From Ardenticatenales bacterium (GTDB lineage Bacteria > Chloroflexota > Anaerolineae > Epilineales > Epilineaceae): a stretch of DNA of 64,000 nucleotides. Within the stretch, counting starts at the first letter, position 1. Each line of letters opens with the position of its first letter. Below, in pieces: positions 1 through 37,574 of this stretch. The translations under genes were made by a program, and so were the position numbers. Below the pieces are notes generated by a model. It had not been told where the DNA came from. It made no database searches and was given only the letters and a program-made list of their open reading frames with translations. The stretch lies in assembly GCA_020853525.1 (NCBI GenBank), contig JADYYS010000067.1:1319-65318 (forward strand), written 5' to 3'.

Positions 1-3000
1 GCTGACGGTATACGTGCCGTTCCCGTTGTTCACCGTCGACGTGACGTTCTTCGCCACGCCGATCGCCGGCGCCTCGGCGAACGTCACGGGCGTCGGATCG
101 TTCTCGCCCGGCTCGTTCGCATTGTTGTCGCCGTCAGGATCCGGGTTCGTCCCCGCGTCTGACAGGTCGTTCACCGGCGTCCCGCCCGGGCTCGTGCCCG
201 TGGCCGTCGCCTGGTTGTTGTACGGGCCGAGGTTCGCGCCCGGCGTCACCGTCACGTTGATCGGGATCGTCCCACTGGCTCCGACCGCCAGGCTGTCCGT
301 CCCGGCGAGTACGTTCGTGTCGCCCGCGCCGTTGTAGCCGGCGTTGACCGTGAAGTCGCCGCTGACCGCGCTCACGCCGCCGAACGACGTCGCCCCGGCG
401 AACGTCGCCGCCAGGTTGTCCGTCACCTGTACCGCCGACAACGGCACATCACCGAGGTTCTCGACGACGAGGCTGTAGCTGACGGTATACGTCCCGTTCC
501 CGTTGTTCACCGTCGACGTGACGGTCTTCGCCACGCCGATCGCCGGCGCCTCGGCGAACGTCACGGGCGTCGGGTCGTTCTCGCCCGGCTCGTTCGCGTT
601 GCCGTCGCCGTCCGGATCCGGGTCCGTGCCCGCGTCCGACACGTCGCTCACCGGCGTGCCGGCCGGGCTGGTGCCGTTGGCCGTCGCCTGGTTGTCGTAC
701 GGGCCGAGGTTCGCGCCAGGTGTCACCGTCACGTTGATCGTGATCGTCCCGCTCCCGCCGATCGCCAAAGCGTCGGTCCCGGCGAGCACGTTCGTGTCGC
801 CCGCGCCGTTGAAGCCGGCGTTGACCGTGAAGTCGCCGCTGGCCGCGCTCACCGCGCTGAACGACGTCGCCCCGGCGAACGTCGCCGCCAAGTTGTCCGT
901 CACCTGCACCGCCGACAGCGCCACATCGCCCAGGTTCTCGACGAACAGGCTGTAGCTGACGGTATAGGTCCCGTTCCCATTGTTCACGTTGGACGTGACG
1001 GTCTTGGCGATGCCGATCGCCGGCGCCTCGCCGAACGTCACCGGCGTCGGGTCGTTCTCACCCGGCTCGTTCGGATTGCCGTCGCCGTCCGGATCCGGGT
1101 CCGTCCCCGCATCCGACTCGTCGTTCACCGGCGTCCCGCCCGGGCTCGTGCCCGTGGCCGTCGCCTGGTTGTCGTACGGCCCGAGGTTGGCACCCGGCGT
1201 CACCGTCACGACGAGGGCGATGCTCCCGCTCGCGGCCACTGCGAGGCTGTCCGTGCCGGCGAGAAGGTTAGGATCGGCGTTCCCGTCGTAGCCCGCGTTG
1301 ACGCTGAAGTCACCGCTGTTCACGCTCACGACGCTGAACGACGTCGCGCCGGCGAACGTGGTCGCCAGGTTGTCCGTCACCTGCACCGCCGACAGCGGCA
1401 CGTCGCCCAGGTTCTCTACGAGCAGGCTGTAGCTGACGGTATATGTCCCGTTCCCGTTGTTCACCGTCGACGTCACGCTCTTGGCGATACCGATCACCGG
1501 CGACTCGCCGAACGTCACCGGCGTCGGGTCGTTCTCACCCGGCTCGTCGGCGTTGTTGTCGCCGTCCGGATCCGGGTCGACGCCGTCGTCCGACACGTCG
1601 TTCACTGGCGTCCCGCCCGGGCTCGTGCCCGTGGCCGTCGCCTGGTTGTCGTACGGTCCGAGGTTACCGCCCGGCGTCACGGTCACGACGAGGGCGATGC
1701 TGCCGCTCGCGCCGACCGCCAGCGTGTCCGTCCCGTCGAGGAGGTCCGTGTCCGCGTTGCCGTCGTAGCCCACGTTCTCCGTCAGGCTCGCGCTCGTCAC
1801 GCTCACGACGCTGAACGACGTCGCGCCGGCGAACGTGGTCGCCAGGTTGTCCGTCACCTGCACCGCCGACAGCGGCACGTCACCGAGGTTCTCGACGACG
1901 AGGCTGTAGCTGACGGTGTACGTCCCGTTCCCGTTGTTCACCGTCGACGTGACGCTCTTGGCGATGCCGATCGCCGGCGCCTCGGCGAACGTCACCGGCG
2001 TCGGGTCGTTCTCGCCCGGCTCGTTGGCGTTGTTGTCGCCGTCCGGATCCGGGTTGACGCCGTCATCCGACACGTCGTTCACCGGCGTGCCGCCCGGGCT
2101 CGTGCCCGTGGCCGTCGCCTGGTTGTTGTACGGGCCGAGGTTCGCGCCCGGCGTCACCGTCACGACGAGGGCGATGCTCCCGCTCGCGCCGACCGCCAGC
2201 GCGTCGGTCCCGGCGAGGAGGTTCGTGTCCGCGTTGCCGTCGTAGCCGACGTTCTCCGTCAAGCTCGCGCTCACCACGCTCACGACGCTGAACGACGTCG
2301 CCCCGGCGAACGTCGCCGCCAGGTTGTCCGTCACCTGCACGCCCGACAACGGCACGTCGCCCAGGTTCTCGACACTGAACAGGTACGTCACCGTGTACGT
2401 GCCGTTCCCGTTGTTCACCGTCGACGTGACGGTCTTCGCCACGCCGATCGCCGGCGCCTCGGCAAACGTCACGGGCGTCGGATCGTTCTCGCCCGCCTCG
2501 TTGGCATTGCCGTCGCCATCCGGGTCCGGGTTCGTCCCGTCGTCCGACACGTCGTTCACCGGCGTCCCGGCCGGGCTCGTGCCCGCGGCCGAGGCCAAGT
2601 TGTTGTACGGGCCGAGGTTGGCGCCCGGCGTCACCGTCACGACGAGCGAGATCGCGCCGGAGCCCATCAAGCCGAGGCTGTCGGTTCCCGCCAGAAGGTT
2701 CGGATCGCCGTTGCCGTTGTAGCCCGCGTTCACCGTGAAGTCGCCGCTCGTGACGCTGGTCACGCTGAACGACGTCGCGCCGGCGAACGTGGCTGCCAGG
2801 TTGTCCGTCACCTGCACGCCCGACAGCACCACATCGCCCAGATTCTCGACGACCAGGCTGTAGGTGACCGTGTACGTGCCGTCGCCGTTGTTCACCGTCG
2901 ACGCGACGCTCTTCGCCACACCGATCGACGGAACCTCGACGAACAGGACCGGCGTCGGGTCGTTCTCGCCCGCCTCGTCGGCATTGCCGTCGCCGTCCGG

Positions 3001-3350
3001 GTCAGGATCCGTGCCGTCGTCCGACGTGTCGTCGACGACTGCGTTGATCGGGCTCGTGCCCGTCGCAACGGCGGTGTTGTCGTACGGCCCGAGGTTGGCG
3101 CCCGGCGTGACGGTGACGGTCACGGTGATCGTGCCGACGGCGCCGATCGCCAGGCTGTCCGTGCCGGCAAGGAGGTTGGTGTCAGCATTGCCGTCGTAGC
3201 CCGCGTTGACTGCGAAGTCGACGCTGGTCACGGCGTCGACCGTGAACGAGGTCGCGCCGGCAAACGTGGTCGCCAGGTTGTCCGTCACCTGCACGGCGGA
3301 CAGCGCCACGTCGCCCAGATTCTCGACCTTCAACTCGTACGTGACGGTGT
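1..3350 (-). repeat. Tandem array of about 7 near-identical ~477-bp (159-codon) coding repeats, i.e. DUF11-type domain units inside the giant gene, which probably continue beyond the window start
   Basis: A recurring 45-mer of the form gctgacggtatacgtcccgttcccgttgttcaccgtcgacgtgacg appears near 1, 478, 957, 1435, 1911, 2388 and 2866. The ggcgtcgggtcgttctcgcccggctcgt motif recurs with the same period. The plus-strand ORF-track entries 14..337, 503..955, 980..1291 and so on are antisense reflections of this periodicity. Confidence 0.85.
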
Positions 3351-6300
3351 GGTCGCCGGTGCCGTGGTTGAAGACCATCGTCACGCGCTTGGCGACGCCG
3401 ATCGCCGGGTTCTCGAGCGACTCGATCTCGAAGTCCTGGTCGACGTAGCTGCCGGCCAGCGCTACGGCCAACGTGATGTTGTCCGGATTGCCGCCGTCAC
3501 GGTCAGCCAGGCTCGTGAAACCGAGCGGGTTCGTCTTCGTGACCTGGCACAGGCCGGGCGCCACGCCGGTGAAGGCGTAGTCGCCGCTGGCGTTCGTTGT
3601 CGTGTTCTGCGTGGTGTCGTCACCCGTGCCCAGATAGCCGTCCAGGCCTGCGCAGGTCAGTGTGAGCGCCACGAGCTCGACGGGGATCTCGGTCGGGGGC
3701 TCGGCCAAGCCGTCGCCGTCGGCGTTGTAGACGACGGTGCCGCTGATCGTGGCCGGCTGGTACTGGTAGCCGAAGTCGAGCCCGGTGATGTCGGCGTTGA
3801 CGTTGATCGGCGGCGTCGGCGCTTCGGTCGGTCCGTAGGCCATCGATGGGAGGTCGAGCTCATCGGCGTCCAGCACGGTGCACACGCTGCCGTCGGGCAC
3901 GCCCGCCACGGACCACGCGCCGCCGAATCCCGTGACGGCCATGAACGTACCGGTATCGCACTGCACCGTCACGTCGACCCCGGCGAAGCCTGGCTCGCCG
4001 TCGTCGTTGCTGTTGCCGTTCAAGTCCTCGTACACCCGCCCGCTGAGCGTGCGCAGGATGCCGGGCGGCTGGTAGCCGAAGTCGAGGCCGAGGTCGTCGC
4101 CGCCGCCCGTCACCGTGGCGGAGCCCTCGCCGTCGCAGACCGTGCACGTGCCGGCCTCGTCGGGGTCGGCGGTCTGGACGAAGCCGCCCGGCACGGAGGC
4201 CGCGACGACGCGGACGATGTACGTGGCGTCGGCCAAGCCGACGAACAGGTAGCTGCCGCCGCCGTCCGTCGCCTGGGTGTCGAGCAGCATCGTGCCGGTG
4301 GCGTCGTACAGCTGGACCGTCACGCCGGCCAGGCCGGGCTCGCCCGGGTCCTGCATGCCGTCCCCGTCCGCGTCGAGGAACACGGTGTCGCCGACCGTGC
4401 CGCCGTCGTCCAGGCCGAAGTCGAAGCCGCCCAGTTCCTGACCGGCGGCCAGGAGCGTGTTGTAGAAGGTCGGCGTCGTGGCATCGACCAGCCCGGCCGG
4501 GATGTCGGGGTCCGTAGCGTCATAGCGGATGACGTAGTCGCCGGGCGTCAGGATGAACGTGTACTCGCCGACGCCATCCGTCACCGTCGACGGCTCGCCC
4601 GGGTCGAGCGTACCGTCGTCGTCGAGGTCGATCCAGACCGTCACGTTGGCCAGCACGATGTCGCCGCCGTCCAGTGACCCGCCGTGGTTCACGTCATGGA
4701 AGACGTGGCCCTCGATCTCGCCGGCCTCGATGAAGCCGAAGTCGGCCGTCAGCCGGTCCTCGCCGGCGCCCAGCACGACGGCGATCTCGCTGCCGGTCGT
4801 CGCGACCATGCGCCCGATCTCACCGGCATTCGCGCTCGACGGCGGCGCCGGCACCTGCTGCTCCTCGGCCCGAACGACGTAGTTGCCGGGCGGGAGGTTG
4901 TCGAACAGATAGGCGCCGTTCGCATCGGTCACCGTAACGGCCACGATCGTCTCGCCCGGGTCGATCTCGCCGTTGCCGTCCGCATCCTCGTACAGCACGA
5001 TCGTCGTGTTCGGCGCGCCGCCTTCGCCCCCGTCCTGTACGGTGTCGCCGTCGAGGTCGTACCAGGCGCGGTCGCCGATCGATCCGGACCAGTTGTAGCC
5101 GAAGTCGGCCACGAGGTAGTCGGTGTTCGCCGCCAGCGTAACGTCGTGCGGCTCGGTGCCGCCGACGAGGTCCATCGCAGCGGCCAGCGTCGCCATGCCG
5201 CCGGACGGCGTCGTTACCAGGCTCGCCGCGTCGACGCTGACGAGGAAGTCGCCGGCATAGACGTTGTCGAACAGGTACAGGCCGTCGGCATCCGTCGTCG
5301 TCGTGTCGATGAGGATGTCGGTCGGGTCGATGACCCCGTCATTGTCCAGATCGCGGTACAGGTGGACCGTGATCGACGGCAGGCCGTCCTCGTCGACGTC
5401 CTTGATGCCGTCCTCGTCGGCATCCAGCCAGACGGTGTCGCCGATCGAACTGCCGTCGCTGTTGAAGCCGAAGTCGGCGTCGGTGATCTGCGCCGTCGCC
5501 AGCGTGGCGCCGAGCGTGCGCATGAGGGTCTGCGTCGTTGTCGGGTAGTAGCCGCTCGGATAGGTCGTCGAATCCGTGCGCACGGTGTACATCGTGCTGA
5601 GCGAGAGGCCGGCGATCTGATAGTGCCCGGCGGCGTCGGTGGTGTCGAACGGCTCGCCGCCGTCCCGTACGCCGTCGTTGTCGAGGTCGATCCACACGAT
5701 CACGCCCGCCAGGCCCGGCTCGCCCGCATCCTGCACGCCGTCGCTGTCGACATCGGCCCAGACCCGGTCGCCGATGCTGCCCGTCGTGGCCGTTTCGGCC
5801 GGGTTGCTGGTGGCCAGGAGGGTCGGTCCGTCGAAGAACTCCGCCGTGTTCGTCACGACGTCGACCGTCAGGGGGTCGTTGATCGTGACCTGGAACGAGA
5901 GCTGCGGCGCCACGATGACGCTGTTGGAAGTGGACGACGACCACGTCGTCGACCCGTTCGTCGCGCTGGCGCTGAACGTGAGACCGCCGACCGTCCCGGC
6001 AACGCCGCTGGCCGTACAGCTCCAGGTGAACAAGGCCGACCCATTGGCCGGTACCGTCTGCGATGCCGGCGAAGCGGCGCCGCACGTGGCCGTGGCGCCG
6101 CCGGTCCCGGCCACGGTGAGCGCACCGGGCGCGACCGACGTCACCGCCACGCCCGACGAGTCGGTGAGCGTCATCGCGACGTTCACCGTGTCGCCGCTCT
6201 GGACCAGCGTCGGCCCGGCGGCGATGTTGTTCGTGCCGGTGGGGTTGGCCGGGGGGATGCTCCAGTTGACGGTCAGCGTCGGGCGCCGGGTGGCGGTGCC

Positions 6301-9300
6301 CTCTTCGCTGGCGTAGTACTGGACCTCGCCTGTGTCCGTGCCGGTGGCGAACAGGACCAGACCATTGTTGGGCTGGGCACCGGTGTACCACTGGCTGACC
6401 AGGCTGGTGATGACCGCCGTCTTGCCGCCGGTCGTCGACGGCGTGATCGTGCCTTCCGTCGTCGCGTTGTAGTCGCTGCTGCCGAACACGCCGCCGCCGC
6501 TGGCCCAGTCGATGCCGCCGGCGCCGTCGGGGTCGTTCCAGGTCGTGCTGCCCTCGGTCCACGCCGTGACGACGCGGTGGATCTCATCGACGTGGTTGTT
6601 CTTCTTGGCCCGGACCTCCATGCGCAACGTCGCCTGGGAGATCGTCGCGCCCGCCGGCACCGTGCTGAGGTCGAAGCGCACGAGCGCGTGCCGTTCCTGC
6701 GTAGCCGGGCTCGGCTGGACGCGCAGGCGGTTGTTGGCGCCGGTGTTCGTGTTCGCGTTCGCCTCGTCGATGTCGGCGTCGACGACGCCGCTGTCGCGGA
6801 GGATCGTCGTGCCGGCACAGCCGTTCGGCGTGTACGTGATCACGATCTGCGGTCGTTCGCTGGCGGTCCCGGTGGTGCGCGGTTCCCAGCTCACCGTGTT
6901 CGTGGCTGAGCCGACGGGCCACATCGTCAGGCCGCGGTTCGTGCCGCCGCTCAGCCAGCCGCTCACGACGGTGTCGAGCGCTGCGCCGCTGATGTTGTAC
7001 GTCGTGCCGTTGGTGGTCGGGTTGAACGTGCCGAGGGTTGTCGCGCTGAAATCGCTCGTGCCGAAGTTGCCCGCGGCGCTCAGCCAGTCGTCCGTGCAGT
7101 TCGGGCCTTGCCACGCGGCGCCGTTGCCCGACGAGGCACAGGGGTCGTCGTTGCCGGTGCCCTCGGTGAACGATGTGAGCAGGTCGTGGATCTCGACCTG
7201 CCGGTTGGCGCCGGCGCCGCCGCTCGTCGTCAGGTTGAGCGTCGCGCCGTTGAACGTTGCGCCGGCCGGCAGCGTCGACGCATCGATCGTGAACTGCAGC
7301 AGGCCAACCGCCTTGTTGGCGGCCGACGAGGTGTCGATCGAGGTGTCGGTGCCGTGGTTCTGATCCACATCGGCCTGCTCGAGCCAGGTGTCCTTGGCGG
7401 CGACGATGGCCGTGGTCGTCTGGCACGCAACGGGCGGCGTGCCGCCCTTGAACCCCTCGGTACCGATCGTGTTGCTGCCCAGGTCCCATTGCACGGAGTC
7501 GATCCCGCCGGTCGTCAGCACCGCGTCGTCGTCCTGGTCGACGAACTCGCCGCCGGCGTTCGGGCTCGTCGGGGGCGTATCGACGCCCGTCGTCCCGGCC
7601 GGGATCGTGTCGACGATGACCGCGCTGCTGAGCAGCTCGTTGCCGGGGTAGCGCGGCGTGATGGTGTAGGTCAGCGTGGCGCCGGTGCCGGCGAAGGCGG
7701 TGTCGACCGACTTGGCCAACGACTGGACGAACGGGAAGTCGGCCGTCAGCTCGTCCTCGCCTGCCGACAGGTCGACCGCGATGCGATCGACGACGCCGGC
7801 GTAACCGGCCGGGATGTCGGGATCGCCGCTGTCGATGTCCACGATGTAGTCGCCCGCACCGAGCGTGTCGAACAGGTAGGTGCCGTCCGGACCGGTGACG
7901 GTGGTGGCCAGGAGCGGCTCGCCGGGATCGAGGATGCCGTCGCCGTCCGTGTCCTGGTAGAGGTCGATCGTGACGCCCGAGATGCCGGCCTCGCCGGCGT
8001 CCTTGACACCGTCGCCGTCGTCATCCTGCCAGACCTGGTCGCCGATCGAACCGGGCACTTGGCGCCAGAAGCCGAAGTCCGCCGCCGTGTAGCTGCCGGC
8101 CAGGTTGGCGACGGCATGCGGATCGGACGTGGACGAGACGAAGCTGTCGGGGCTGAAGTAGGCCACGAGATCGGGGTCGGTTTGGACGACATCCACGATG
8201 TAGTCGAGCCCTTCCGCCAGACCGGCAAAGCTATAGAGGCCGCTGCCGTCCGTCGTCGTCGTAGCGACGAGAAGGTCGGTGCCGACGTCGATGACGCCGT
8301 CGCCGTCGGTGTCCTCGTACAGGTTCACCGAGACGTTGGCGATGCCGACATCGCCCGCGCCGGGGTTGTACATACCGTCGTTGCCGAGATCCTCGAACAC
8401 GAGGTCGCCGATGCTGCCGGTGCCGGCCGGGTCGTAGCCGAAGTCGATCGTGTTGTTGATCTCGTCCGTCGCCAGCGTGACGGATCGCGGCTCGGACGGC
8501 GTCGTCAGCGTGTAGCCGGCCGGGACGCCGGACGCCACGTCGACGCAGTAGCTGCCGGCGGTCAAGCCGGCGAAGCCGTAGGCGCCGTCGGCGTCGGTGT
8601 TCGTCGTCTGCAGCACGGGCCCGCTGGGCGGGCAGCTGCCGCCGTACAGGTTGAGAGTGACGCTCGGAATGCCTTCCTCGCCCGCGTCTTGGACGCCGTC
8701 GCCATCCCAGTCGCGCCAAACGAGATCGCCGATCTTGGCGCCGCCGACAGTGACACAGCCGTCCGAACCGGTCGTCGTCGGCACGCCGTTCTGCGTCGTC
8801 GTGTAGACGTTGCAGTAGGCACCCGGTGGGAGGTTGAGCGCGCTCTGGGCGGTGAACACGAGCACGAGCTGGTTGCCGGCGTTCACCGCCGCCGGCACGG
8901 TGAACATCGGCTGGTTGGGGTTGGCGTTGTTGACGGTCGTCGAGCCGGTGGCGTTGGCGCCGTTGACGGTGACGCTGACGAGGGCGGTGTAGCTGAAGCC
9001 GGTCGGCAGGTACTCCTGGATCGTCACCGGGCTGCCGGTCGGGCCGGTGCCGATGTTCTTCACCAACAGGGTGTAGTTGACCGACCCGCCCGGGGCAATG
9101 CTCGTCGGGCTGACCGACTTCGTGTTGTTGAGGATCGGAATCGCCCCGACACAGATCGTCTCGGTCGAGCGCTGCGGTCCGAGTTGGTTCGAGGTGACGG
9201 TTACGATGTTGTCGAGGCAGCCCGAGCCCGTGGCCTTGACGGTGACGAGCGACTCGAACTTCTGGCCGGGCTGCAACGTCCCGACATTCCAGACCAGGGG

Positions 9301-10893: not shown

Positions 10894-10934
10894 GTTGACG
10901 TCCTTCATCTGTTCGCCGAAACAAGACAGCATGA

Positions 10935-10959
10935 GGCAACGGGCGCATTGCCCGTTGCC
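10935..10959 (-). terminator. Perfect 10-bp stem / 5-nt loop hairpin (GGCAACGGGC-gcatt-GCCCGTTGCC), about 25 nt upstream of the start codon of giant gene 1 and about 275 nt downstream of giant gene 2. It could be an intrinsic terminator or attenuator separating the two giant genes
   Basis: The stem-loop is read directly from the sequence. On the minus strand it is followed by the U-containing stretch UCAUGCUGUCUUGUUUCGG. Confidence 0.35.
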
Positions 10960-17200: not shown

Positions 17201-18205
17201 CGCCGGGTTCGTCGTCGGCGTGGCGGTCGGGGTCTGTGTCGCCGTCGGCGTGGGCGTCGCCGTGCTCGTCGCCGTTTCCGTCGGCGTCGAGGTCGACGTG
17301 GATGTCGGCGTCGCCGTCGGTGTCGGGGTGGCGACGACGATCACGACGAACACGCTGGCGTCCGGTCGGTCGCAGTTCGGCGCGGCGTCGAGGTTGGGGT
17401 CGTGGTTGTCGGTCGCCCAAAGCAGGTTCAGCGCGCTTGGGTCGCCGATCGCCGCGCGGGAGACGTACATGTCGACGAAGTCGCCCGTGACGGCGTAACC
17501 GACGGTGCTGTTCGTCGTGTTGCCCTGTGGCCCGCCGGCCCCGGCCGTTCCCGTGCCGAGCACGCGCTGCCAGTCGGCGCTGCCGATCGCGTTGTTCGTG
17601 TAATCGGGCGGATTGTTCGAACCCCATCGGGCGGAGAAGCCGGCGTTCAGGAGATCGTCCATGAACGTCAGCTCGCCCAGCTGGTTTCGGCCGAGCGTGC
17701 AGTCCGCCGGGACGCAGAGGTCCTCGAGGTTCAGCAGGTACTCGGCGTCGTTGATGTTGCCGCCGGAGATCGTGGCGTCGCTGCCGACGGTGTCCAGGAA
17801 CCACTTGTAACGGGCCTGGCCCTGGCTGTCGGCGCTCGGCCAGCCCGCCGGATCGATGTTCTCCATCCGCAGGTAGAGGTACGCGCTGTCGACCGCGTAG
17901 AACGTCGAGATCACGTCGCGGTGGTCGTTGCAGCCGCTCTCCGCCGCGTCGACGACGATCGGCGTCCACGTCGTCGGCCACGCCGCAAACGCCGCGGCCC
18001 GCCGGATCGCGTTCGGTGCCGGCCGCGGACGGCCGTGCTGCCCGTTCGAGGTGGCGATCCCTTGCGCCGATCGTGAACCGACCACCGCCCAAAGGCGCTG
18101 GCCTGCAATCCCGACGACGAGTGCCAGGACGAGCGCCGCGAGCGCGGCGAACGGAGCGGCGGGTGACGGCAGGCGAAAAGCGGGGCGCTGGTCGCGCTTG
18201 ACCAT
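11234..18205 (-). CDS. Giant secreted multi-domain protein (2323 aa). Order of parts: a signal peptide; a conserved ~230-aa N-terminal domain shared with the protein at 53625..56042; a Thr/Pro-rich linker; 2 DUF11/TIGR01451-type repeats; a long Thr/Pro linker; 2 SdrD/CnaB-like domains; and a ~1350-aa internally duplicated module of unknown function
   Basis: The ORF-track protein begins [26 protein letters not shown] (signal). It contains [32 protein letters not shown] and [21 protein letters not shown] twice. It contains a long [17 protein letters not shown]... linker. It contains [35 protein letters not shown] (CnaB/SdrD-like). The C-terminal 1350 aa are homologous to the N-terminal module of the next gene. 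The overlapping plus-strand ORF 11078..18076 is a low-complexity antisense artifact. Confidence 0.85.
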
Positions 18206-18417
18206 GGGTTGTCTCTCAGTGATGGCGATCGCAGCGCTGGTGGGGTTCCGCGCGATGGCAGCGAATCGTGCTCACGTATCGACCGACGGCCGCATGCAGT
18301 CCATGCACCCCGTCACACGCCTTGTCCGCTCGACGCGTCGACGCGCCCGCTCTATGCCACGAGGGCCGGCGACCTTGCGGCCGCCGGCCCCGTGGTGCGC
18401 GTCGCGCGCGCCTAGTA

Positions 18418-18484
18418 CTCTGTCACTGGACACGCTTCAGGTATACGACTGAGGTAGGCATCCGTAGACTCTGCAGTGACAGAG
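18418..18484 (-). terminator. Structured element with an 11-bp perfect inverted repeat (CTCTGTCACTG ... CAGTGACAGAG, ~45-nt loop region) beginning 3 nt after the stop codon of giant gene 3. Candidate terminator or RNA-processing stem
   Basis: The arms lie at 18418-18428 and 18474-18484, and the TAG stop of gene 3 is at 18487-18489. There is no clear U-tract. Confidence 0.3.
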
Positions 18485-18486
18485 CG

Positions 18487-21400: not shown

Positions 21401-24400
21401 CTGTCGGCGTTGTCGGTGACGTCGGGATCCGGTTCGGACGACGTCGCGCTGGCGTTGTTCGTCAGCACGGTGCCCGGCTGCACGTTCTGGCCGACCTGCG
21501 CGACGATCGTGACCGTCTTCGTCTGGCCGTTCGCGAGCGGTCCGATGTTGCAGCCGGCGGCCAGCGCGGCCGCGCCGCACGTCTGGCTGTCGGAGACGTA
21601 CGTCATCCCGCTGGGCAGCGCGTCGGTGAGCGTGACGGTGGCCGCGTCGGACGGGCCGCTGTTCTTCACCTGGACGGTGAACGTCACCTGCGCCCCGGGC
21701 GGCGGCTGGACGCTGGAGGCGTCCTTGTCCACGCTGATATCGGCGCTGCGAACGGCCTCAACGGTGTCGTCGTCCTGGTTGTTGCCCGGATTCGGATCTT
21801 CCGTGTTCAGGCGATCCGGCGCGTCGGCGTCCAGCGTCGACGCCAGGAGCGCCTTGCCGTGCGCCACGCTGGCGACGTTCGTGAGCTGCGCTCCGTTCGG
21901 CACGTTCGCGTTGATGAGGACCGTCATCGTGAACAGCCGCGACTGACCGCTGTTCAGGGCGCCGAGGCTGCACGTGAGCGTGCGCACCGGACTCTGGATG
22001 CAGGCCGATGTCGCGCCCGGTCCGGCGGTATCGCTCTGGTACGTCATCCCCGCCGGCAGGTTGTCGGTGACGATGACGGAGGGGGCGTTCGCCGGGCCGA
22101 GGTTCTCGATGAGAAGGTTGAAGGCGTGCATCGTGCCCGGCGTGACGGTGATCGTCGGCGATGTCTTCGTCAACCGCAGATCGGCGCCCTGGGCGCTGCC
22201 GGTGACCAACGTGGTGGCCGACGCGGTGTTGTTGCCGGGCGTCGGGTCGACCGTCGCCGACGAGACCGACGCGCTGTTGATGAGCTGCGTCCCGGTCAAC
22301 GCGTCGTCGTCGACGTCGACGATGATCGTGAACTGCGCCGCCTGGCCCGAGAGGAGGCTGCCCAACGCGCACAGGCGCGTCGAGCCGCCGCCCGACGTGC
22401 AGCCGTTGGGGTTCGTCGTCGAGACGAACTCCGTGTCGAGCGGCAGGACGTCGTTCACCAGGACGTTGTTCGCGGTGTTGGGACCGTTGTTCGTGACGGT
22501 CAGCTGATAGGCGATCTGCTGCCCCGCCAGGATCTGGGCCGGCCCCGCCTTGGTGATCGCCAGATCGGCCGACGTCCCGGACGCAGGCGTGACGGACGTC
22601 TGCGCAGAGGCATTGTTGTTGCCCGGCGCCGGATCCGGCGTCGACGACGTGACCGAAGCGGTGTTCGTCAGCGTCGTGTTCGCTTGGCCCGCCGTCGTCT
22701 GGATCGTCACGACGACCGCCGCCGAGCCGCCCGAGACGATGCTGCCCATCGCGCATTGCAGGTTGGACGAAGCCGGCGGGTTCAGGCTGCAGACCGGCGG
22801 GATGCTGCCGACGAACGTCGTTCCGGCCGGCAGCGTGTCGTTCAGGGTCACGCCCGTTGCGGTGCTCGGACCGGCGTTGTTCACTGCCAGGGTGTAGTTG
22901 ACCGTGTTGCCGGCCTGCACGGACGTCGGCCCGGTCTTTGTCAGCGAGAGGTCGGCCGACGAAGCGCCGCCGACGGTCGTCGTCGTCGTGCTGCTGCTGT
23001 TGCCGCCGTCCGGGTCGGGCGTGTCGCTGTCGACGCCTGCGATATTCACGAGCTGCGTGCCTTGCGCCAGCCCGCCCACGGTCACGGTGATCGTGAACGT
23101 GCGCGTCACGCCGACGGCGATGTCGCCGAGGGTGCACGTGAGCGTTCCGACCGGGGCCTGCACGCAGCCGCCCGTGTCGGAGACGTACGTCACCCCGGCC
23201 GGAAGCGTGTCGACGACGACGACGTTCATGGCGTTCGACGGCCCGCCGTTGATGACGTTGATCGTGTAGACCAGCGTGCCGCCGGCCACGACGCTCGGCG
23301 GCGCCGACTTCGTGATCCGGAGGTCGGCGCTCGCGACGGCGATGACGGTCGCCGACGACGTGTTGTTCGCCGGCACCGGGTCGGAGACGCCGGCCGCGCT
23401 GACGACGGCGGTGTTGTTCAGGCTCGCCCCCGGTGCGACGTCCGCGTTGATCTTGGCCACGACGTGGAACGTGCGCGAGCCGCCCGAGGCGATGGCGCCG
23501 AGGTTGCACGTCAGCGTGCCGGGCGGTGCCTGCACGCAGCCCGCGTCATCGGAGACGTACGTCATTCCGACCGGCAGGACGTCCGTCACCTGGGCGTTCG
23601 CGACGGCGCTCGGGCCGAAGTTGGAGGCCACCAGCGTGAACGTCACGTTGCCGCCGGCGGTGTACGGGCCGGCCGAGGCCGACTTCTCCAGCCGGAGGTC
23701 GGCCGCAGCGGCGACGATGACCGCCGCCTGCGCCTGGTTGTTGCCGAGCGTCGGATCCGGCGTGTTCGACTGGACCGCGGCGCTGTTCGTCAGGATCGTG
23801 CCGGTCAGTGCGCCCGGCGCCACCTGGACGGTGATCGCCACGGCGGCCGACGCGCCGGCGGCCAGCGTGCCGATCGTGCAGTTGATCGTGTTCGGCGGGC
23901 CCTGGACGCACGCGCCGTTCGAGGCGACGTAGTTCAGCCCGACGGGCAGCGTGTCGATGATGTGGACGTTTGTGGCGTCCGACGGCCCGTTGTTCGTGAC
24001 CAGGAGCTGGAAGACCACCTGGTCGCCCGGTCGCGGCGTGATGATCGACGCGCTCTTGGCGATCGCCAGGTCGGCCGCGCGCGTCGTCGTGACGACGGCG
24101 GTGGCCGAGTTGTTGGCCAGGTTCGGGTCGAGCGTGCTCGTCGATGACACCGTGGCGGTGTTCACGAGGACCGTCCCGACCGGGATCTCCATGTCCAAGC
24201 GCACCGTGACCGTGAAGGAACGCGTCTGGCCGACGGCGATGCTGCCGAACGTGCATGTGAGCGTCCCCACCGGACCCTCGACGCAGCCGTCCGTGTCGGA
24301 GACGTACGTCACGCCTTCGGGCAGGACGTCGCGGACGGTGACGTCGGTGACCGCGTCGGGTCCGTTGTTCGTGACCGAGATCGTGTAGACGAGCTCGCCG

Positions 24401-27400
24401 CCGGCCACCGGGGCGGCCGTCGAGGCCACCTTCGTGATCGAGAGGTCGGCCAGGTCGACCGGCACCGTCACGTCGCGGGTGTTGATGTAGATGTCATCCG
24501 TGTTCGCCGGGTCATAGAAGACCTTGACGCGCGTCGGCTGACCGAGCGGGCAGGCGCCGTCGAAGTAGCCGACGGTGATGTTGTCCTCGTCGTCGAAGAC
24601 GTGCACCTGCGGCGGGTTCGGGTTGTTCACCGGCGGGATGATCCCGAGCGGCGGGGCCCAGGTGTCGCCGGCGGCGCTGATGTCCGTGTGGTCGAGCGCC
24701 GGCGGGTTGAACTCGTTCGGCCCCGGGCCGGGGAAGAACGGGCCGGGCTCGTCGCGCGTGCAGCCGTAGAACGCCAGCTTGCTCACGGGCGACGTCCAGC
24801 CGAGCGTCAGGAGGTACTTCTGGCCCTCCGGCACCCGGATGGCGGTGAAGTTCGACGGCGTGACCATGAGCTGGTGGGTGTTCCAGCCCGTGCGCGTGTT
24901 CTGACCGGTTACCGCCGGCGCGAAGGTCTCGCGCAGCTCGGTGTGCAGCCGCGTCTCGTCCGTCTCTTCGAGGATCGTCTCGACCATCGGATCGGCGGCG
25001 GCAAGCTCGCCCACACAGCTCAGGTAGCCGTTCTGGAAGGCGAAGTCGATCGGCGCCAAGCGGTCGATGTCCAGCGCCAGCGTGTGCTGGAAGTTGAACG
25101 GCGGCAGAACGGACATCTCCGCCGGCAACCCGTTCAGGAAGTAGCCCTGATAGAACAGGGAGTCCTGCGGGTTGATGAAGTTGCCCTTCGGCACCGGGGT
25201 GCGGATCGTGATGAACGCGAAGTTGTCGTTGCACAGTCCGGCCGCGCCGCTGTTCTCGGTCATCAGCGCCACGACGTTGTACTCGTGGCCGTCGACGTAG
25301 AAGCGCTTGAGGTACCACGGGTCGCCCGGCAGGAGATCGTGGCTGCCGTTGCCGTCGTCGATCGCCGAGTGGGTGCCGCCGAGGGCGCGGCCGACGGTCA
25401 ATGTCACGCGGTCGCCGGAAGGCGCGACGTCCTCGACGAACGCGAACCAGGCACCGTCGGGGGCGATGTTCGCCTCGCCCGGGCCGACGATCGTCACGCG
25501 GTCCTGGAAGCGGTCGACGAGCACGGCGTCGCCGATGTCGAGCGTCCGGATGCCGCCGACCGCCTCGGGACGGGCGTTGTTCGGGTTGCCGCCGGTGAAG
25601 AACAGGCGGAACTGGGCGCGCGTGTTGGGCGTGACGTTGTTGAGCGTGATGAGGTAGTCCAGGAACTGGGCGTTGTGGCCCTCGGGCGTGTTCGGATCGA
25701 GATCGAGCGTCAGGCTCTGTACGGCGAAGACCGCCATCTCGTTCCCGTTCAGCGCCTGGCAGTCGGCGTCGAGCGCGTCCTGGACGCCGTCGCCGTCGAA
25801 GTCGAGCACCGGGCCGGCGAGCGGCGTCACGGGGACGCCAGGCAATGTCGGGCGGTTGGACTGCCACTGCTGGTCCAGGTACTGGTTCAGCGTCTGCTCG
25901 GAGTGGATGTTCGATGCGTCGCTGTAGCCGTCGAAGTTCGCGTCGAACGTCGTCAAGCCGTAGCCGAACTGGCCGCCCGCCGGCAGCGTGCCGTTCGGGT
26001 TGGGCGCGGGCAGATCACCGGCGCGCGAGCCGACCGGGAAGGCGATCCGGCTCGAACCGGGCGGCACGCCGGTCGGGTTGTCGGTCGTGTCCATCATCAG
26101 GAACGTGTATTCCTGGACGATCGCCGGGAACTTCAGGTCGCGTTGGCAGTCATCCGTGAAGCGCAGCTTGTCGACCCAGTCCGGCTGGTACCACGTGCGG
26201 TGGTACACCTTCTCACGGGCGTTCTGCGCACCGTTCGAGATCTGCTGGTACAGCTCGCGGAGCGGCTCGTTGAAGTTGCGGAACTCGTCCATGTAGGCCG
26301 GGTTGAACGTCAGCGAGTCCGTGCGCGGCGCATGCGGGTGCTGCGGGTTGAACGGCGCGAACGGGTCGGTGTACGGCGGCACCTCGACCGGATACGCCGC
26401 CAGGCCCGAAATCGGGTCCGTGGCCACGCCGGTGTCGCCTGCGCCGAAGAGGATCGACGGGCGGCTGATGATGCCGTTGCACTCCAGGTCGTCGCAGACC
26501 GGGAAGCCGCCGTACAGCCGGAGGCCGTCGTTGTTCGCGGTCAGCTTGCCCTTGTTGTCGTCGGGGTCGTGGATGAAGGTGACGCGGCGCGGTGAGCCGT
26601 AGCTGCCCGTGACCGGGTCGAAGACCGTCTCGTCGATCTGCAGGTCGGGCGGGGTCGGCGGCTGATCCTCGGGCACCGAGCCGTCGGGCATCCGCCACAG
26701 CCGCCAGCGCGCGGTATCGTTCGTGAAGCCGCTCGTCACCAGGTAGTTGTCCGGATCGCACGCCGGCACACCGCCGGCCACGGGCGCCCCGGCCTGGTCG
26801 GGCAGGACGAACTCGGTGTAGCGCCACGGCTGGGTGAACACCTGCTCGTTGTAGAAGAAGCTCTGCGGGATCCCGGGCGGCTGCGGCACGCCCGGTGCCG
26901 TGTTCAGCGCGCCGTACTTCTCCCGGATCTGGCCGATGAACGGCTCGTAGCCCTCTTCCTCGGTGTAGAACCAGTGGCTGGCGAAGTAGTTGTCGTATGG
27001 GCCGACCGCGCGCTGCGGGTCGCGGCCGGTGTATACGAGCGCGTCGCTCTGCGCCAGGACGGGCGGCATCGGGCCCATCGGGCCGCCCATGTAGAGGATC
27101 TCGGGGCGCGCGACCTCGTCGTCGCCGGGCAGGATCGGGCAGAGATCGAAGCCCTTGAAGTCGATGACATCCTCGAGGATCGTGTGCTCGTGGTTGAACG
27201 GCGGCGGCAGCACGAGCGGCTCGAGCACACCGTAGCCCTCGAGGCGCACGGAGTGCTGCTCGATCGTCACGTCGACCTTCGGCAGGGGCGAGCGGAGGGT
27301 GATGTACTGGATGGCGTTGGTGGCGCACGTCATGATCGCCACGACGTTGTACTCGTGGCCGTCGACGTAAAAGCGCTTGAGCCACCACGGGCCGCCGGGC

Positions 27401-28809
27401 GAGCGGTTCGCCACGTTCGGCGTCGATTCCATCGACGCGCACGGCGCGCCGAGCGCACGGCCGAGGACGACGGTCACCGTGCCGTCGACGGCGTCGGTGC
27501 CCTGGACGTAGACGAAGAATGGGCCGATCGGCATCTGGCCGAGGAGGTTCGCGCCGGGCTGGACGACCTGCAGCGGGCCGACGTCGGCCGCCAGCGCCAT
27601 GCCGTTGACGCCGATCGAGCGGACCTGGACGAGGCGCGGTCGGAGGTCGCCGTTGTACCAGACCTCGAGCACGGCGGCCTGCGACGAAACGTTGCGGACG
27701 CGCACGAAGTGGTCGAGGAACTGGACGGTGCTGCCGCTGTGGATCGTCATCGAGTCCGTCGAGAGGACGACCATCTCGTCGCACGAGAGCGCGACGCCGT
27801 CCGTGTTCACGTTGTCCAGGACGTTGTCGCCGTCGAAGTCGACGGTGATCCCGGAATCGGCGGCCTGCGTGATCTCGCTGCCGACGTTCACCATGTCGTT
27901 CATGCCGTCGAAGTCGACATCGAGGCTCGTGAGACCGTCGCCGCTGAGCGGCCCGGCCGGGTCGGTCGCGCCCAGCGACGTGCCGACGGGGAAGACGAAC
28001 CGCGTCTCACCGGCGCGGCCGCAGATCGGGCGCGGGGCGCTGTCGTCCAGGCGATCCGGGTCGGGATGGGCCACCGGCAGCTCGTTGTCGAGGAGCTGAT
28101 AGGTGAACTCGGTCATGATCGCCGGGTACCACTCGTCCTGGTTGGACGGCGTCGGGTTGACGGCGGCATCCGGCGTCCCGTTGTTGTTGCTGTCCGTCAG
28201 GCAGTCGTCGGAGTTGAGGTCCTTGTCGAGGCGGGTCGGCTCGTACCAGTGGCGGAGCCAGACCTTCTCCGAACCGTTCACGCCCGACGCGCGGATGTTC
28301 GAATCGCGCGAGACCTCGTCGGCGGCGCGCAGGCAGTTCCACTGTGCCCGGAACGGGGCTTCGTTCAACCGCTCCGAGATCCAGGCCGGATCCCAGGTGA
28401 CGTAGTCGAACTCGGGCGCCTCGGTCGAGAGCGGGCTGAACGGTCCCGTCGGATCCGTGTACGGCGGATCCTCCGGCACGTTCTGCGTGTTCGGGTCGAG
28501 GATGGTGTTCGAACCCGCCGTCGCCGGCCGGTTGCCCTCCCCGATGATGCACGAGTTGCAGACCGTGGTGTAGCCGTACAACCGCAGCGTGTCGATCCGC
28601 TCGGTGATGTCGGCCAGCGGAGCGGCGGCGGGGGAGGCGGCGGGGGCTGCGGCAGGCGCCGCACCGGCCATGCCGGCACCCAGGCCGAGGCCGCCCGCCA
28701 TGGCAACGGTCACGGCCATGCAGGCACGCCAGACAGCCGCGCTCCGCGAGCGCGCCTCCGGACGACGGTCGGTTGCCAGACGGGTGGACTGCGAGCGGGA
28801 CTGACTCAT
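18487..28809 (-). CDS. Giant secreted multi-domain protein (~3440 aa). Order of parts: a signal peptide; a ~1350-aa internally duplicated module of unknown function; about 20 DUF11 repeats; an FN3-like domain; a carboxypeptidase-regulatory-like domain; a duplicated dockerin-type Ca-binding segment; and a C-terminal cohesin-like beta-sandwich
   Basis: ORF-track protein 18487..28887. I place the start at 28809 (MSQSRSQS..MAVTVAMAGGLGLGAGMAGAAPA signal) because a GGAGGAG Shine-Dalgarno-like motif sits 7 nt upstream. DUF11 units are of the type DLSITKVASTAAPVAGGELVYTISVTNNGPDAVTDVTVRDVLPEGVTYV. The FN3 hallmark TSYTFRVSARD is present. Dockerin-like segments are GDTDNNTNINLFDLVRVGANY and DCNADHEVNLFDLVLVGTNYG. 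The cohesin-like segment reads GDVVLFTIEFQVLKD. Confidence 0.85.
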   Translation of the reverse strand: MSQSRSQSTRLATDRRPEARSRSAAVWRACMAVTVAMAGGLGLGAGMAGAAPAAAPAASPAAAPLADITERIDTLRLYGYTTVCNSCIIGEGNRPATAGSNTILDPNTQNVPEDPPYTDPTGPFSPLSTEAPEFDYVTWDPAWISERLNEAPFRAQWNCLRAADEVSRDSNIRASGVNGSEKVWLRHWYEPTRLDKDLNSDDCLTDSNNNGTPDAAVNPTPSNQDEWYPAIMTEFTYQLLDNELPVAHPDPDRLDDSAPRPICGRAGETRFVFPVGTSLGATDPAGPLSGDGLTSLDVDFDGMNDMVNVGSEITQAADSGITVDFDGDNVLDNVNTDGVALSCDEMVVLSTDSMTIHSGSTVQFLDHFVRVRNVSSQAAVLEVWYNGDLRPRLVQVRSIGVNGMALAADVGPLQVVQPGANLLGQMPIGPFFVYVQGTDAVDGTVTVVLGRALGAPCASMESTPNVANRSPGGPWWLKRFYVDGHEYNVVAIMTCATNAIQYITLRSPLPKVDVTIEQHSVRLEGYGVLEPLVLPPPFNHEHTILEDVIDFKGFDLCPILPGDDEVARPEILYMGGPMGPMPPVLAQSDALVYTGRDPQRAVGPYDNYFASHWFYTEEEGYEPFIGQIREKYGALNTAPGVPQPPGIPQSFFYNEQVFTQPWRYTEFVLPDQAGAPVAGGVPACDPDNYLVTSGFTNDTARWRLWRMPDGSVPEDQPPTPPDLQIDETVFDPVTGSYGSPRRVTFIHDPDDNKGKLTANNDGLRLYGGFPVCDDLECNGIISRPSILFGAGDTGVATDPISGLAAYPVEVPPYTDPFAPFNPQHPHAPRTDSLTFNPAYMDEFRNFNEPLRELYQQISNGAQNAREKVYHRTWYQPDWVDKLRFTDDCQRDLKFPAIVQEYTFLMMDTTDNPTGVPPGSSRIAFPVGSRAGDLPAPNPNGTLPAGGQFGYGLTTFDANFDGYSDASNIHSEQTLNQYLDQQWQSNRPTLPGVPVTPLAGPVLDFDGDGVQDALDADCQALNGNEMAVFAVQSLTLDLDPNTPEGHNAQFLDYLITLNNVTPNTRAQFRLFFTGGNPNNARPEAVGGIRTLDIGDAVLVDRFQDRVTIVGPGEANIAPDGAWFAFVEDVAPSGDRVTLTVGRALGGTHSAIDDGNGSHDLLPGDPWYLKRFYVDGHEYNVVALMTENSGAAGLCNDNFAFITIRTPVPKGNFINPQDSLFYQGYFLNGLPAEMSVLPPFNFQHTLALDIDRLAPIDFAFQNGYLSCVGELAAADPMVETILEETDETRLHTELRETFAPAVTGQNTRTGWNTHQLMVTPSNFTAIRVPEGQKYLLTLGWTSPVSKLAFYGCTRDEPGPFFPGPGPNEFNPPALDHTDISAAGDTWAPPLGIIPPVNNPNPPQVHVFDDEDNITVGYFDGACPLGQPTRVKVFYDPANTDDIYINTRDVTVPVDLADLSITKVASTAAPVAGGELVYTISVTNNGPDAVTDVTVRDVLPEGVTYVSDTDGCVEGPVGTLTCTFGSIAVGQTRSFTVTVRLDMEIPVGTVLVNTATVSSTSTLDPNLANNSATAVVTTTRAADLAIAKSASIITPRPGDQVVFQLLVTNNGPSDATNVHIIDTLPVGLNYVASNGACVQGPPNTINCTIGTLAAGASAAVAITVQVAPGALTGTILTNSAAVQSNTPDPTLGNNQAQAAVIVAAAADLRLEKSASAGPYTAGGNVTFTLVASNFGPSAVANAQVTDVLPVGMTYVSDDAGCVQAPPGTLTCNLGAIASGGSRTFHVVAKINADVAPGASLNNTAVVSAAGVSDPVPANNTSSATVIAVASADLRITKSAPPSVVAGGTLVYTINVINGGPSNAMNVVVVDTLPAGVTYVSDTGGCVQAPVGTLTCTLGDIAVGVTRTFTITVTVGGLAQGTQLVNIAGVDSDTPDPDGGNSSSTTTTTVGGASSADLSLTKTGPTSVQAGNTVNYTLAVNNAGPSTATGVTLNDTLPAGTTFVGSIPPVCSLNPPASSNLQCAMGSIVSGGSAAVVVTIQTTAGQANTTLTNTASVTSSTPDPAPGNNNASAQTSVTPASGTSADLAITKAGPAQILAGQQIAYQLTVTNNGPNTANNVLVNDVLPLDTEFVSTTNPNGCTSGGGSTRLCALGSLLSGQAAQFTIIVDVDDDALTGTQLINSASVSSATVDPTPGNNTASATTLVTGSAQGADLRLTKTSPTITVTPGTMHAFNLLIENLGPANAPSVIVTDNLPAGMTYQSDTAGPGATSACIQSPVRTLTCSLGALNSGQSRLFTMTVLINANVPNGAQLTNVASVAHGKALLASTLDADAPDRLNTEDPNPGNNQDDDTVEAVRSADISVDKDASSVQPPPGAQVTFTVQVKNSGPSDAATVTLTDALPSGMTYVSDSQTCGAAALAAGCNIGPLANGQTKTVTIVAQVGQNVQPGTVLTNNASATSSEPDPDVTDNADSAFVIVSQPTNDADLAIDKTASDPTPLSGEAITFDLKVTNNGPAAAQNVVVADTLPAQVTAGTLPPACSLAAATVTCNLGNIANGTTVVVQIPVTVGAGLASGTQFSNTATVTSGTPDPAPANNSDTVALVVETPSQNVNLAVQKTASDSQPVAGTTIQYTIEVKNLGPGTANNVVLTDNLPTGTSLVDNDGGCTATGQTLTCNLGSVADDSTRTIHVNVAIPASATQGQQFVNTASVATSSPDTDPNNNQVNNTVTARRVADLSIEKSANPAIVTAGGQVVFGLQVDNLGPSNTGPVTVVDTLPPGLTHVSNSGGCNVSGQTLTCTIPSIQAGGFATIQVTAGIGAGASGSVTNSASVSSPATDPVPANNNDSVTIQITVAQAADVRITKAVNVASPAQQGGLVTYDFTVHNDGPGAATNVVVTDQLPAQVTHESNTTGCQIAGQTLTCNLGTVNSGQTRTFQVVVRIGHNTAAGTQVTNTAHVAAQTPDPNAANNTSAATFTVTAAPPPPLNAACNVLPGGSQVRVTWVDSSNFETEFNVEVSFNGSSYIPLATVPSTTQVGTGTAYSYQTPDLLANTSYTFRVSARDSVTGQVSAASVPTDGCTTVPQPAEKTSCIRGYMNLQGRSDHTGAVVYVDGVPAGVSGPNGYFSICGVPKGEHRLSADAACYLGADQMFRVSGGQPFDLPFTSLPGGDTDNNTNINLFDLVRVGANYRTSPPSDIRADCNADHEVNLFDLVLVGTNYGRSGAVPFGYNGEENGAAFFSDPTAPATERAVAKALRGVLPTAVLRATGLPEGAPAERPDGPTDVALNVRAVDEETIAVDVVAKGVWNMYGADIKVRFDTQKVKVIDALEGSGVQVKPGAAWQADGPSFVAMNTVDPAGEIRFAAARMRPANGLYGDVVLFTIEFQVLKDAVDSAWNVDSALLADPSGKTIETKIDGQKIEALLDRNAFVGRALLPALYRGYSMR

Positions 28810-28892
28810 CTGTGGCTCCTCCGGTTCGAAGAAGGCCCGTCTGGCCCTGGGGGGGACGGATCGGGGCGGGACCTCAAGCGCGCACAAACACG

Positions 28893-28919: not shown

Positions 28920-28971
28920 GCTCCGGCGCACGCCCACGAGGGGCATCGCCGAAACGGGGTCGGATGGGGTG

Positions 28972-31152: not shown

Positions 31153-31168
31153 GCAGGCGCGGGGCGGA

Positions 31169-37557: not shown

Positions 37558-37574
37558 CTCTGCCTCGGCACGAT

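Follow-up and report, generated by a model that had tools for sequence, protein, structure and literature searches.

What would three adjacent giant proteins, none of them with a recognisable catalytic domain, build at the surface of a Chloroflexota bacterium, and by what means would they be held there? The question is raised by a 64,000-nt stretch of DNA, hereafter the window, from the metagenome-assembled genome (MAG) of an Ardenticatenales bacterium (assembly GCA_020853525.1, contig JADYYS010000067.1, positions 1,319 to 65,318 of the forward strand). Three very long open frames, here named g1, g2 and g3, run in the same direction on the minus strand of window positions 1-28983, in a context of ~69% GC, and encode proteins of >3636, 2323 and 3440 aa. 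An initial annotation of this DNA had described them as adjacent giant genes for secreted cell-surface mega-proteins, mosaics of the same building blocks. The gene arrangement is borne out, the mosaic structure is supported by our domain maps, and the domains then listed for g1-g3 are those found with Pfam, NCBIfam and jackhmmer run within the window. Export is predicted, signal peptides being judged solely from the hydrophobic N-terminal segments present in all three proteins. Our answer, which we hold to be probable on balance, is that the locus specifies three paralogous, mosaic, Sec-exported, wall- or membrane-tethered fibrillar surface proteins, with a new head domain on the products of g2 and g3.

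Domain architecture of the three proteins

The product of g3 (18490..28809, minus strand; 3440 aa) has, in this order, a signal-like N-terminus, a double domain of ~1,330 aa described below, 12 CLIPPER domains, an fn3 domain, an X-module, a dockerin and a cohesin. The longest open reading frame of g3 starts at TTG 28887, which is the end coordinate given in the initial annotation; ATG 28809 is almost certainly the true start, being preceded by GGAGG and yielding a 3440-aa product that matches NCBI MCC7021006.1 exactly, an Ardenticatenales MAG entry from an 81.6-kb contig annotated as "DUF11 domain-containing protein". The stalk (19870..24447, minus strand; aa 1455-2980) matches PF01345 in 12 stretches (E 2.6e-288, 936.9 bits). 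DUF11 and DUF7507, that is CLIPPER and CLIPPER_2, are experimentally characterised CnaA-like immunoglobulin (Ig) domains that bear an intramolecular Lys-Asn isopeptide and form the stalks of fibrillar adhesins (PMC12617251). All 12 CLIPPER units of g3 retain the Lys/Asp/Asn triad. The Lys-to-Asp distance is +33 to +35 in 12/12 and the Lys-to-Asn distance +87 to +91 in 11/12 by pattern match, with the spacing seen in crystal structure 9IFR (reference triad K715, D748 and N806, residues from PMC12617251); in the twelfth unit (aa 2483) the pattern misplaced the Asn, but an Asn is present at the aligned position. Judging from these residues, the stalk units probably form Lys-Asn isopeptide bonds.

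In the product of g2 (11237..18205, minus strand; 2323 aa), a strongly hydrophobic N-terminal helix (aa 12-42), which may by its sequence serve as a signal anchor, is followed by an N-terminal domain of no known family (17342-18073, minus strand; aa 45-288; no Pfam match), a Thr/Pro linker (aa 289-338), two CLIPPER_2 (DUF7507) domains, a second Thr/Pro linker (aa 641-767, 127 aa), two SdrD_B domains and, at the C-terminus, a second copy of the double domain (11276..15286, minus strand; aa 974-2310). Thr/Pro linkers are confined to g2, and no anchor module was found at its C-terminus. The N-terminal domain is a reusable module that recurs ahead of double-domain genes at three other loci (L002, 5573-6262, 47%; L031; L029). 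An NCBIfam match of g2 to a "Kustd1514 S-layer" model, located around the Thr/Pro linker and the adjoining SdrD_B, scored 26 against a required 1400 bits and was disregarded.

The frame of g1 (1..10908, minus strand) is open from 11100 to below position 1, with a likely start at ATG 10908 (>3636 aa) or ATG 10893; the gene is partial, its C-terminus lying beyond the window. A hydrophobic N-terminal segment and an adhesin-like N-terminal domain precede 2 CLIPPER, 3 SdrD_B, 1 DUF11-like, 2 DNRLRE/CBM96, 7 SdrD_B and at least 7 CLIPPER_2 domains, which brings the totals to 3 DUF11, 10 SdrD_B, 2 DNRLRE/CBM96 and no fewer than 7 DUF7507 units, each 159 aa long. The N-terminal domain (9481..10611, minus strand; aa 100-476), without a match in Pfam, is modelled as an Ig-type adhesin/pilin-like core with insertions (predicted local distance difference test score, pLDDT, 82.6) and has 82 homologues across several phyla, in many of which DUF11 comes after it. 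The DNRLRE/CBM96 pair (6259..7416, minus strand; aa 1165-1550) is detected by NF033679 (E 5.8e-34) and PF24517 (E 1.7e-16) and resolved into two copies by jackhmmer. The CLIPPER_2 domains form a tandem array (1..3411, minus strand) of 159-aa (477-nt) units in >7 copies running past the window edge, to which TRF assigns a period of 477 nt, 7.0 copies and 85% match; with a unit-to-unit identity of 72-91% it is the only internally homogenised block of the locus, and a Ca-loop-like spacer closes every DUF7507 unit in the alignment. The break in g1 and that in an orthologue at another locus (L007) fall inside or just before this array, and a further copy (L004) ends after ~200 residues, which suggests that the array breaks short-read assemblies. 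By its domain content, g1 looks like a fibrillar adhesin of conventional type, whose Ig head is adhesin-like and whose DNRLRE/CBM96 pair is lectin-like.

All three proteins thus carry a tandem Ig-like stalk, and neither they nor the rest of the window contain a catalytic domain by our searches. CLIPPER and CLIPPER_2 fibrillar adhesins (PMC12617251; 9IFR) resemble them in being very long secreted proteins with SdrD_B/CnaB domains mixed in, in their tandem CnaA-like Ig stalk with its Lys-Asp-Asn triad and in having a distinct terminal domain with an anchoring module opposite. Unlike those adhesins, g2 and g3 have as their head an undescribed 1,330-aa double domain instead of a known adhesive domain, and the anchor of g3 is made of X-dockerin and cohesin, not of an LPXTG, OmpA, type IX secretion system or archaeosortase signal. 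The Staphylococcus MSCRAMM proteins SdrD and SdrC likewise use Ca-binding, CnaB-like B-repeat (SdrD_B) domains as stalk elements, but no A-region, SD repeats or LPXTG signal were seen in g1-g3, and the NCBIfam exception models for SdrD and SdrC were missed by far (201.6 vs 2500 bits and 173.4 vs 1700 bits), only the B-repeats matching. The same NCBIfam scan found no LPXTG or other sorting-signal model above cut-off in g1-g3. The possibility that these are ordinary members of a well-characterised family holds for the stalks and fails for the double domain, which lies outside Pfam and NCBIfam.

A duplicated double domain with an essentially new predicted fold

The double domain of g3 (24604..28605, minus strand; aa 69-1402) consists of two ~650-aa units that arose by tandem duplication: A spans aa 69-~758, B spans aa ~757-1402, and their identity to each other is 31% (E 2e-60). 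Both units contain the motifs PPYTDP, EKVWxRxWYEP, Ca-type DFDGDG loops, PGDPW(Y/F)... and PPFNxEH, and both retain invariant K, H, Y, R, E and W residues. No match was found in Pfam (even at E 10), in NCBIfam or among PDB sequences. The "novel module of ~1350 aa" of the initial annotation is consequently real and unmatched, but it is itself an internal duplication, and it occurs across the Chloroflexota and not at this locus only.

AlphaFold2, given a 64-sequence alignment, predicted an almost all-beta structure for unit A (pLDDT 89.2; predicted template modelling score, pTM, 0.91). The fold matches of the model, to a Methanosarcina S-layer tile and to class II fusion proteins, are weak. Foldseek returned a single match of appreciable probability, the S-layer domain 3u2g (E 1.5e-2, prob 0.63); two methods thus rank the Methanosarcina tile first among structural matches, if weakly. 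That protein, MA0829 (tandem DUF1608/MSTP fold; 3u2g, 3u2h), is also a duplicated beta-rich unit in an exported envelope protein; its units are ~260 aa long against ~650 aa here, there is no sequence similarity, it is archaeal and not bacterial, and a lattice of the double domain is only hypothesised. Neither the sequence nor the fold test places the double domain in DUF1608/MSTP. As predicted, the fold is essentially new, and its resemblance to the archaeal S-layer tile is weak and not decisive.

Distribution of the family and its usual partners

A word-indexed search recovered 117 homologues of the double domain, and all those with a named organism come from Chloroflexota MAGs (Anaerolineae, Ardenticatenales, Caldilineae). 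Scanning 185,579 species genomes gave 139 double-domain loci; the 75 that were kept are all from MAGs, and every one with a named phylum is Chloroflexota, including Ca. Epilinea brevis. Two to four or more such loci per genome are common. When 1.84 billion representative proteins were scored exhaustively against a hidden Markov model (HMM) built from the four double-domain units of the window, only 308 double-domain proteins emerged at E <=1e-3, and those among them that carry an organism name are without exception Chloroflexota. All named matches being MAGs, no member was found in a cultured organism. The usual family protein is 1,600-1,800 aa long and consists of signal, double domain, X-module, dockerin and cohesin; distant members have Dockerin_1 with PKD or VWA domains.

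The same cassette closes g3. Its X-module and dockerin (19162..19506, minus strand) comprise a CarboxypepD_reg-like segment (aa 3102-3159, a weak match) and a dockerin (aa 3164-3216) recognised by its duplicated Ca-binding F-hands, two canonical repeats read directly from the sequence as DTDNNTNINLFDLV and DCNADHEVNLFDLV (also DTDNNTNINLFDLVRV / DCNADHEVNLFDLVLV). The single cohesin (18586..18945, minus strand; aa 3289-3408) matches PF00963 with E 1.5e-7 and 32.1 bits against a Pfam cut-off of 24.1, and is followed by the C-terminal tail RALLPALYRGYSMR. Compared with known structures, the family profile matches the ScaB X-dockerins 4wi0_B and 4u3s_B (E ~1e-8) and the ScaB cohesin 3l8q (E 2e-10). 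That only g3 has a dockerin/cohesin end, as first proposed, is correct for the complete genes g2 and g3, the end of g1 lying outside the window.

The g3 tail RALLPALYRGYSMR (window 18490-18531) can be set beside a short C-terminal tag conserved in 59/117 homologues of the double domain (many of the others are partial; P0004-P0095), [Y/F/H/W]LP[LVIM][VIL]x[K/R]x(0-6)[R/K/Q]-COOH, of which KVYLPLVMKNSQ and YLPVVFKSGRLR are examples. No transmembrane helix comes after it, and it occurs behind cohesins and behind other C-terminal domains. It may serve in Chloroflexota as a sorting or attachment signal not described before.

As to mechanism, the most telling clue is a neighbouring gene in a distant Anaerolineae clade of the family (37-40% identity). 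At three of its loci, L076 (15380-18617), L077 (15204-18449) and L078 (15345-17808), the gene for a double domain-X-dockerin-cohesin protein is followed by one for a ~360-aa protein with cohesin and LysM, and then by one for a second cohesin protein; the clusters have a DUF3786 gene upstream and genes for histidyl-tRNA synthetase and RNase III downstream. The cohesin-LysM proteins carry two to three LysM copies; the second gene of L078, without a Pfam call, is 54-58% identical to its counterparts in L076 and L077. Throughout the distant clade, a cohesin-LysM gene adjoins the double-domain gene in ~20 of ~45 loci. Gene order and domain content make this neighbour the likely wall anchor, or peptidoglycan-binding partner, of the giant protein's dockerin in that clade.

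Cohesin-dockerin systems outside cellulosomes are on record (Peer et al. 2009, as cited in PMC9012536). In cellulosome anchoring (ScaB/ScaC; 4wi0, 4u3s, 3l8q), the type II X-dockerin of a scaffoldin attaches to cohesins on proteins fixed in the wall. With this system g3 shares the cassette of X-module, dockerin and cohesin, and related genomes share the succession of a dockerin-bearing giant gene and cohesin-bearing wall-binding genes. Unlike a true cellulosome, the window has no dockerin-bearing enzymes and no multi-cohesin scaffoldin; in addition the partner binds the wall through LysM and not through S-layer homology (SLH), a large structural double domain takes the place of the cargo, and tethering is a prediction here. 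The literature that we searched on cohesins and dockerins in Chloroflexi/Anaerolineae consists of cellulase metagenomics and contains nothing on the double-domain family. This family and its cohesin-dockerin(-LysM) context, not found described in the literature searched, are the new elements of the locus.

Old paralogues in a native locus

Residues 974-2310 of g2 are homologous over their full length to residues 69-1402 of g3 (BLASTP, 60.6% aa identity over 1354 aa; 72.4% nt identity over 3932 nt). Aligned codon by codon, the two copies agree at 62% of amino acids and 71% of nucleotides, the nucleotide identity following that of the amino acids; the best 120-nt window reaches 86% and the longest exact string in common is 40 nt. 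The CLIPPER_2 units of g1 and g2 are 71-75% identical in nucleotides and nowhere agree exactly over more than 25 nt. The C-terminal part of g2 was said to equal the N-terminal part of g3: it is a homologous module at 62% aa identity, and the "blocks of strong nucleotide identity" reported between the two genes were overstated. Shared DUF11-variant units in g1 and g2 are confirmed, again with less nucleotide identity than had been claimed. Recent recombination or gene conversion among g1-g3 was considered and ruled out by these figures (71% nt identity, 120-nt windows of at most 86%, exact strings of 25-40 nt), and modular recombination as a current process finds no support in genes without an exact inter-gene run above 40 nt. 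As read from the sequences, the shared blocks are old paralogues.

Comparison with related genomes shows that module order does vary. In another MAG g3 is directly followed by g1 at one locus (L004), and at two others (L005 and L009) a g2-like gene precedes another double-domain gene; in two proteins of other genomes, 4364 and 6317 aa long (P0203 and P0205), g2-like and g3-like parts are fused. Modules have therefore been shuffled, but over evolutionary time.

The giant genes have a G+C content at third codon positions of 0.93-0.95 and an effective number of codons of ~30, the same as the neighbouring genes for UvrC and threonyl-tRNA synthetase. They are thus native to this genome, and horizontal acquisition was ruled out on the same values. 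On an independent MAG contig, CAZYVI010000011.1, the orthologues of UvrC, of a cyclic nucleotide monophosphate (cNMP)-binding protein, of g3, of g2 and of g1 follow in identical order, that of g3 being 83% identical in amino acids and colinear over all 3440 residues, which argues against a chimeric assembly.

Probable tethered fibrillar proteins and the alternatives

How might such proteins work? The stalks would be Ig-like strings of CLIPPER/CLIPPER_2 (CnaA-like) and SdrD_B (CnaB-like) domains, probably locked by isopeptides and stiffened by Ca-binding loops; the rigidity and protease resistance that such bonds and loops confer are known for the domain families and would extend to g1-g3. The Thr/Pro linkers of g2 would act as spacers. 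In g2 and g3, the ~1,330-aa all-beta double domain with its Ca-loop motifs would form the head, far from the presumed anchor: because the anchor cassette of g3 is C-terminal with the head N-terminal, and the candidate anchor of g2 is N-terminal with the head C-terminal, the double domain would be distal in both. We propose that g3 stays on the cell without a covalent bond, because the X-module and dockerin at its C-terminus bind the cohesin of a wall-bound partner, and that another protein with a dockerin, or a paralogue, can dock onto the cohesin of g3 itself; for g2 the hydrophobic helix at the N-terminus is the probable anchor. The likely role would be attachment or cohesion of filaments to surfaces, matrix or neighbouring cells, an outer fibrillar coat, or both. 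Giant DUF11 proteins are indeed made and displayed in the Chloroflexota, since GhlA, a giant DUF11 protein of the filamentous Litorilinea aerophila, was shown to form surface filaments (PMC13319060).

Several observations count against this proposal. No cohesin-LysM gene is present in the window or at any locus of the window's own clade, the sole window match being the cohesin of g3 itself. The dockerin of g3 scores weakly with its HMM (E 0.09). The anchor of g1 is out of sight, its C-terminus falling outside the window and its orthologues being likewise cut at contig ends. The head is strongly conserved, K, H, Y, R and E being invariant in both units, and this could point to catalysis or ligand binding instead of a purely structural domain. 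What the sequences and models show is the structure of the genes, the identity of their domains, their paralogy, the distribution of the family, the conserved association of cohesin, dockerin and LysM genes and the predicted fold; from these, export, isopeptides, tethering by dockerin and cohesin in this organism, topology and the role of the head are inferred.

A first alternative, which we judge unlikely, makes the double domain a lattice- or canopy-forming, S-layer-like tile of an outer protein layer in filamentous Chloroflexota, tethered by its dockerin to cohesin-LysM; the 12-domain stalk of g3 would then hold the tile layer ~50 nm from the wall. The filaments of L. aerophila bear a lattice-like protein layer of unidentified composition, on Ca. 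Viridilinea a fibrillar layer passes into a planar density ~72 nm out, the family occurs in Anaerolineae, Caldilineae and Ardenticatenales only, a conserved wall-anchor gene adjoins it in the distant clade, and the weak fold match is to an MSTP-like protein. Yet two to four or more paralogues per genome, very varied C-terminal partners (PKD, VWA, LysM), a family without members among named cultured species and tables of L. aerophila mass spectrometry without cohesin- or dockerin-named proteins all speak against a tile, as does a conservation unusually high for an S-layer protein; the conserved polar and aromatic residues of the double domain could instead mark a ligand or catalytic site. A more specific version seems doubtful to us: the double domain would be the building block of the lattice-like or fibrillar outer coat of filamentous Chloroflexota (Anaerolineae, Caldilineae, Ardenticatenales), distantly related in fold to the archaeal MSTP tile and fixed to peptidoglycan through cohesin, dockerin and LysM, and paralogues such as g2 and g3, with their isopeptide-locked stalks, would carry the tile to different heights.

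It is improbable, in our estimation, that the double domain binds glycans or acts catalytically on polysaccharides within a minimal, cellulosome-like surface complex that captures substrate. The X-dockerin/cohesin cassettes and the scaffoldin-anchor-like gene order do resemble cellulosome clusters, the two units share invariant residues (K, H, Y, R, E, W) as well as DFDGDG Ca loops, and g1 has CBM96/DNRLRE domains; but the double domain matches no enzyme or carbohydrate-binding module in Pfam, NCBIfam or PDB sequences, and the window contains no glycoside hydrolase or lyase genes.

Multimeric "grappling-hook" filaments for cell-cell capture, like those of GhlA/GhpA (Litorilinea aerophila, Aureispira; PMC13319060), are a very improbable product of g1-g3. 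The L. aerophila protein GhlA (WP_141610714.1), with 6596 aa, 49 DUF11 domains and a hydrophobic helix at the N-terminus, makes trimeric, polar hooked filaments, and g1 and g3, from the same phylum, are giant DUF11-type, beads-on-string proteins with an N-terminal hydrophobic segment. Against this, the likeness to GhlA is known from DUF11 composition alone, no hook-forming terminal domain was identified in g1-g3, and g3 combines only 12 DUF11 with a double-domain head and an X-dockerin-cohesin end, cohesin and dockerin not being reported for GhlA.

Hardly credible, lastly, is the artefact that the initial annotation had itself considered, a repeated architecture produced by chimeric assembly or collapse of a metagenome bin: g1 does break off within a 477-nt tandem array at the window edge, and its orthologues (L007, L004) likewise stop at contig ends, leaving the copy number of the array uncertain, but the blocks shared between genes are, at 71-75% nt identity, too diverged for a collapse, full-length colinear orthologues of g3 and g2 occur in independent MAGs of other studies, and the frames are unbroken with native codon usage.

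The g3 leader and neighbouring genes

The leader of g3 (28812..29050, minus strand) consists of a promoter-like block and a conserved block ahead of the ribosome binding site. In three genomes whose leaders have otherwise diverged, the promoter-like TTGCAA-17-TACAAT (29021..28993) is kept with TTAAGnAGGGGC upstream of it, and a ~60-nt block (28812-28876) directly 5' of the ribosome binding site is 100% identical. Within the latter, CUUCUUCG could pair with CGGAGGAG and thereby mask the Shine-Dalgarno sequence. The leaders of the three giant genes match no riboswitch or other known RNA of Rfam, whether at the gathering threshold or with E relaxed to 1, and the g3 leader folds no better than shuffled sequences (z -1.7).

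Upstream of g3 lies a gene (29176..31152, minus strand; 659 aa) for a protein with cNMP-binding and bPH_2 domains (Pfam), which had been suggested to belong to the same locus. It is found directly upstream of a double-domain gene at six loci (L003, L004, L006, L012, L013 and L021), at identities down to 36%, with uvrC kept beside it wherever that flank is present; it is absent from the distant double-domain clade. The adjacency may be a matter of common descent of the gene order and not of function; judged by the sequences, a functional link to the giant genes is possible. In four loci (L003, L006, L012, L021) the cNMP/bPH_2 and UvrC genes are directly adjacent; in the window (29176-36805) they are separated by two genes, one for a major intrinsic protein (MIP) channel (31172-32011) and one for a fusion of an ArsR-type helix-turn-helix with a low-molecular-weight phosphatase (32377-33300), which look like an inserted pair of the arsenic-resistance type.

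The remainder of the window is of housekeeping character, with the MIP and ArsR-phosphatase genes, uvrC, a tRNA-Val(GAC) gene (37484-37558, plus strand) just upstream of the thrS-infC-rplT cluster for threonyl-tRNA synthetase, IF3 and L20, a LemA gene and a histidine kinase/LuxR two-component pair. Downstream of this pair are an open reading frame of 606 aa (47440-49257, plus strand) with a marginal match to Cu2_monoox_C (E 5e-5) and, at 50047-51219, a gene for a VWA protein.

Significance for the Chloroflexota envelope

The stalk domains are ordinary members of known families and no function of the head is established; the value of the locus is consequently one of hypothesis generation and not of a demonstrated new mechanism. 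It does provide a clear natural example of domain shuffling in giant surface proteins, with the same head N-terminal in g3 and C-terminal in its neighbour g2. The Chloroflexota envelope is poorly understood, and the lattices and fibrillar coats seen in it by cryo-electron tomography have unidentified components. The locus leads to a phylum-restricted family that joins a large new beta-rich double domain to a non-cellulosomal X-dockerin/cohesin cassette and, in a distant clade, to a cohesin-LysM neighbour. Its members are concrete candidates for the coat structures seen by tomography, and they come with a testable mechanism of attachment. If the double domain were indeed a building block of these coats, the tether of cohesin, dockerin and LysM would be a new way to anchor a bacterial surface layer.

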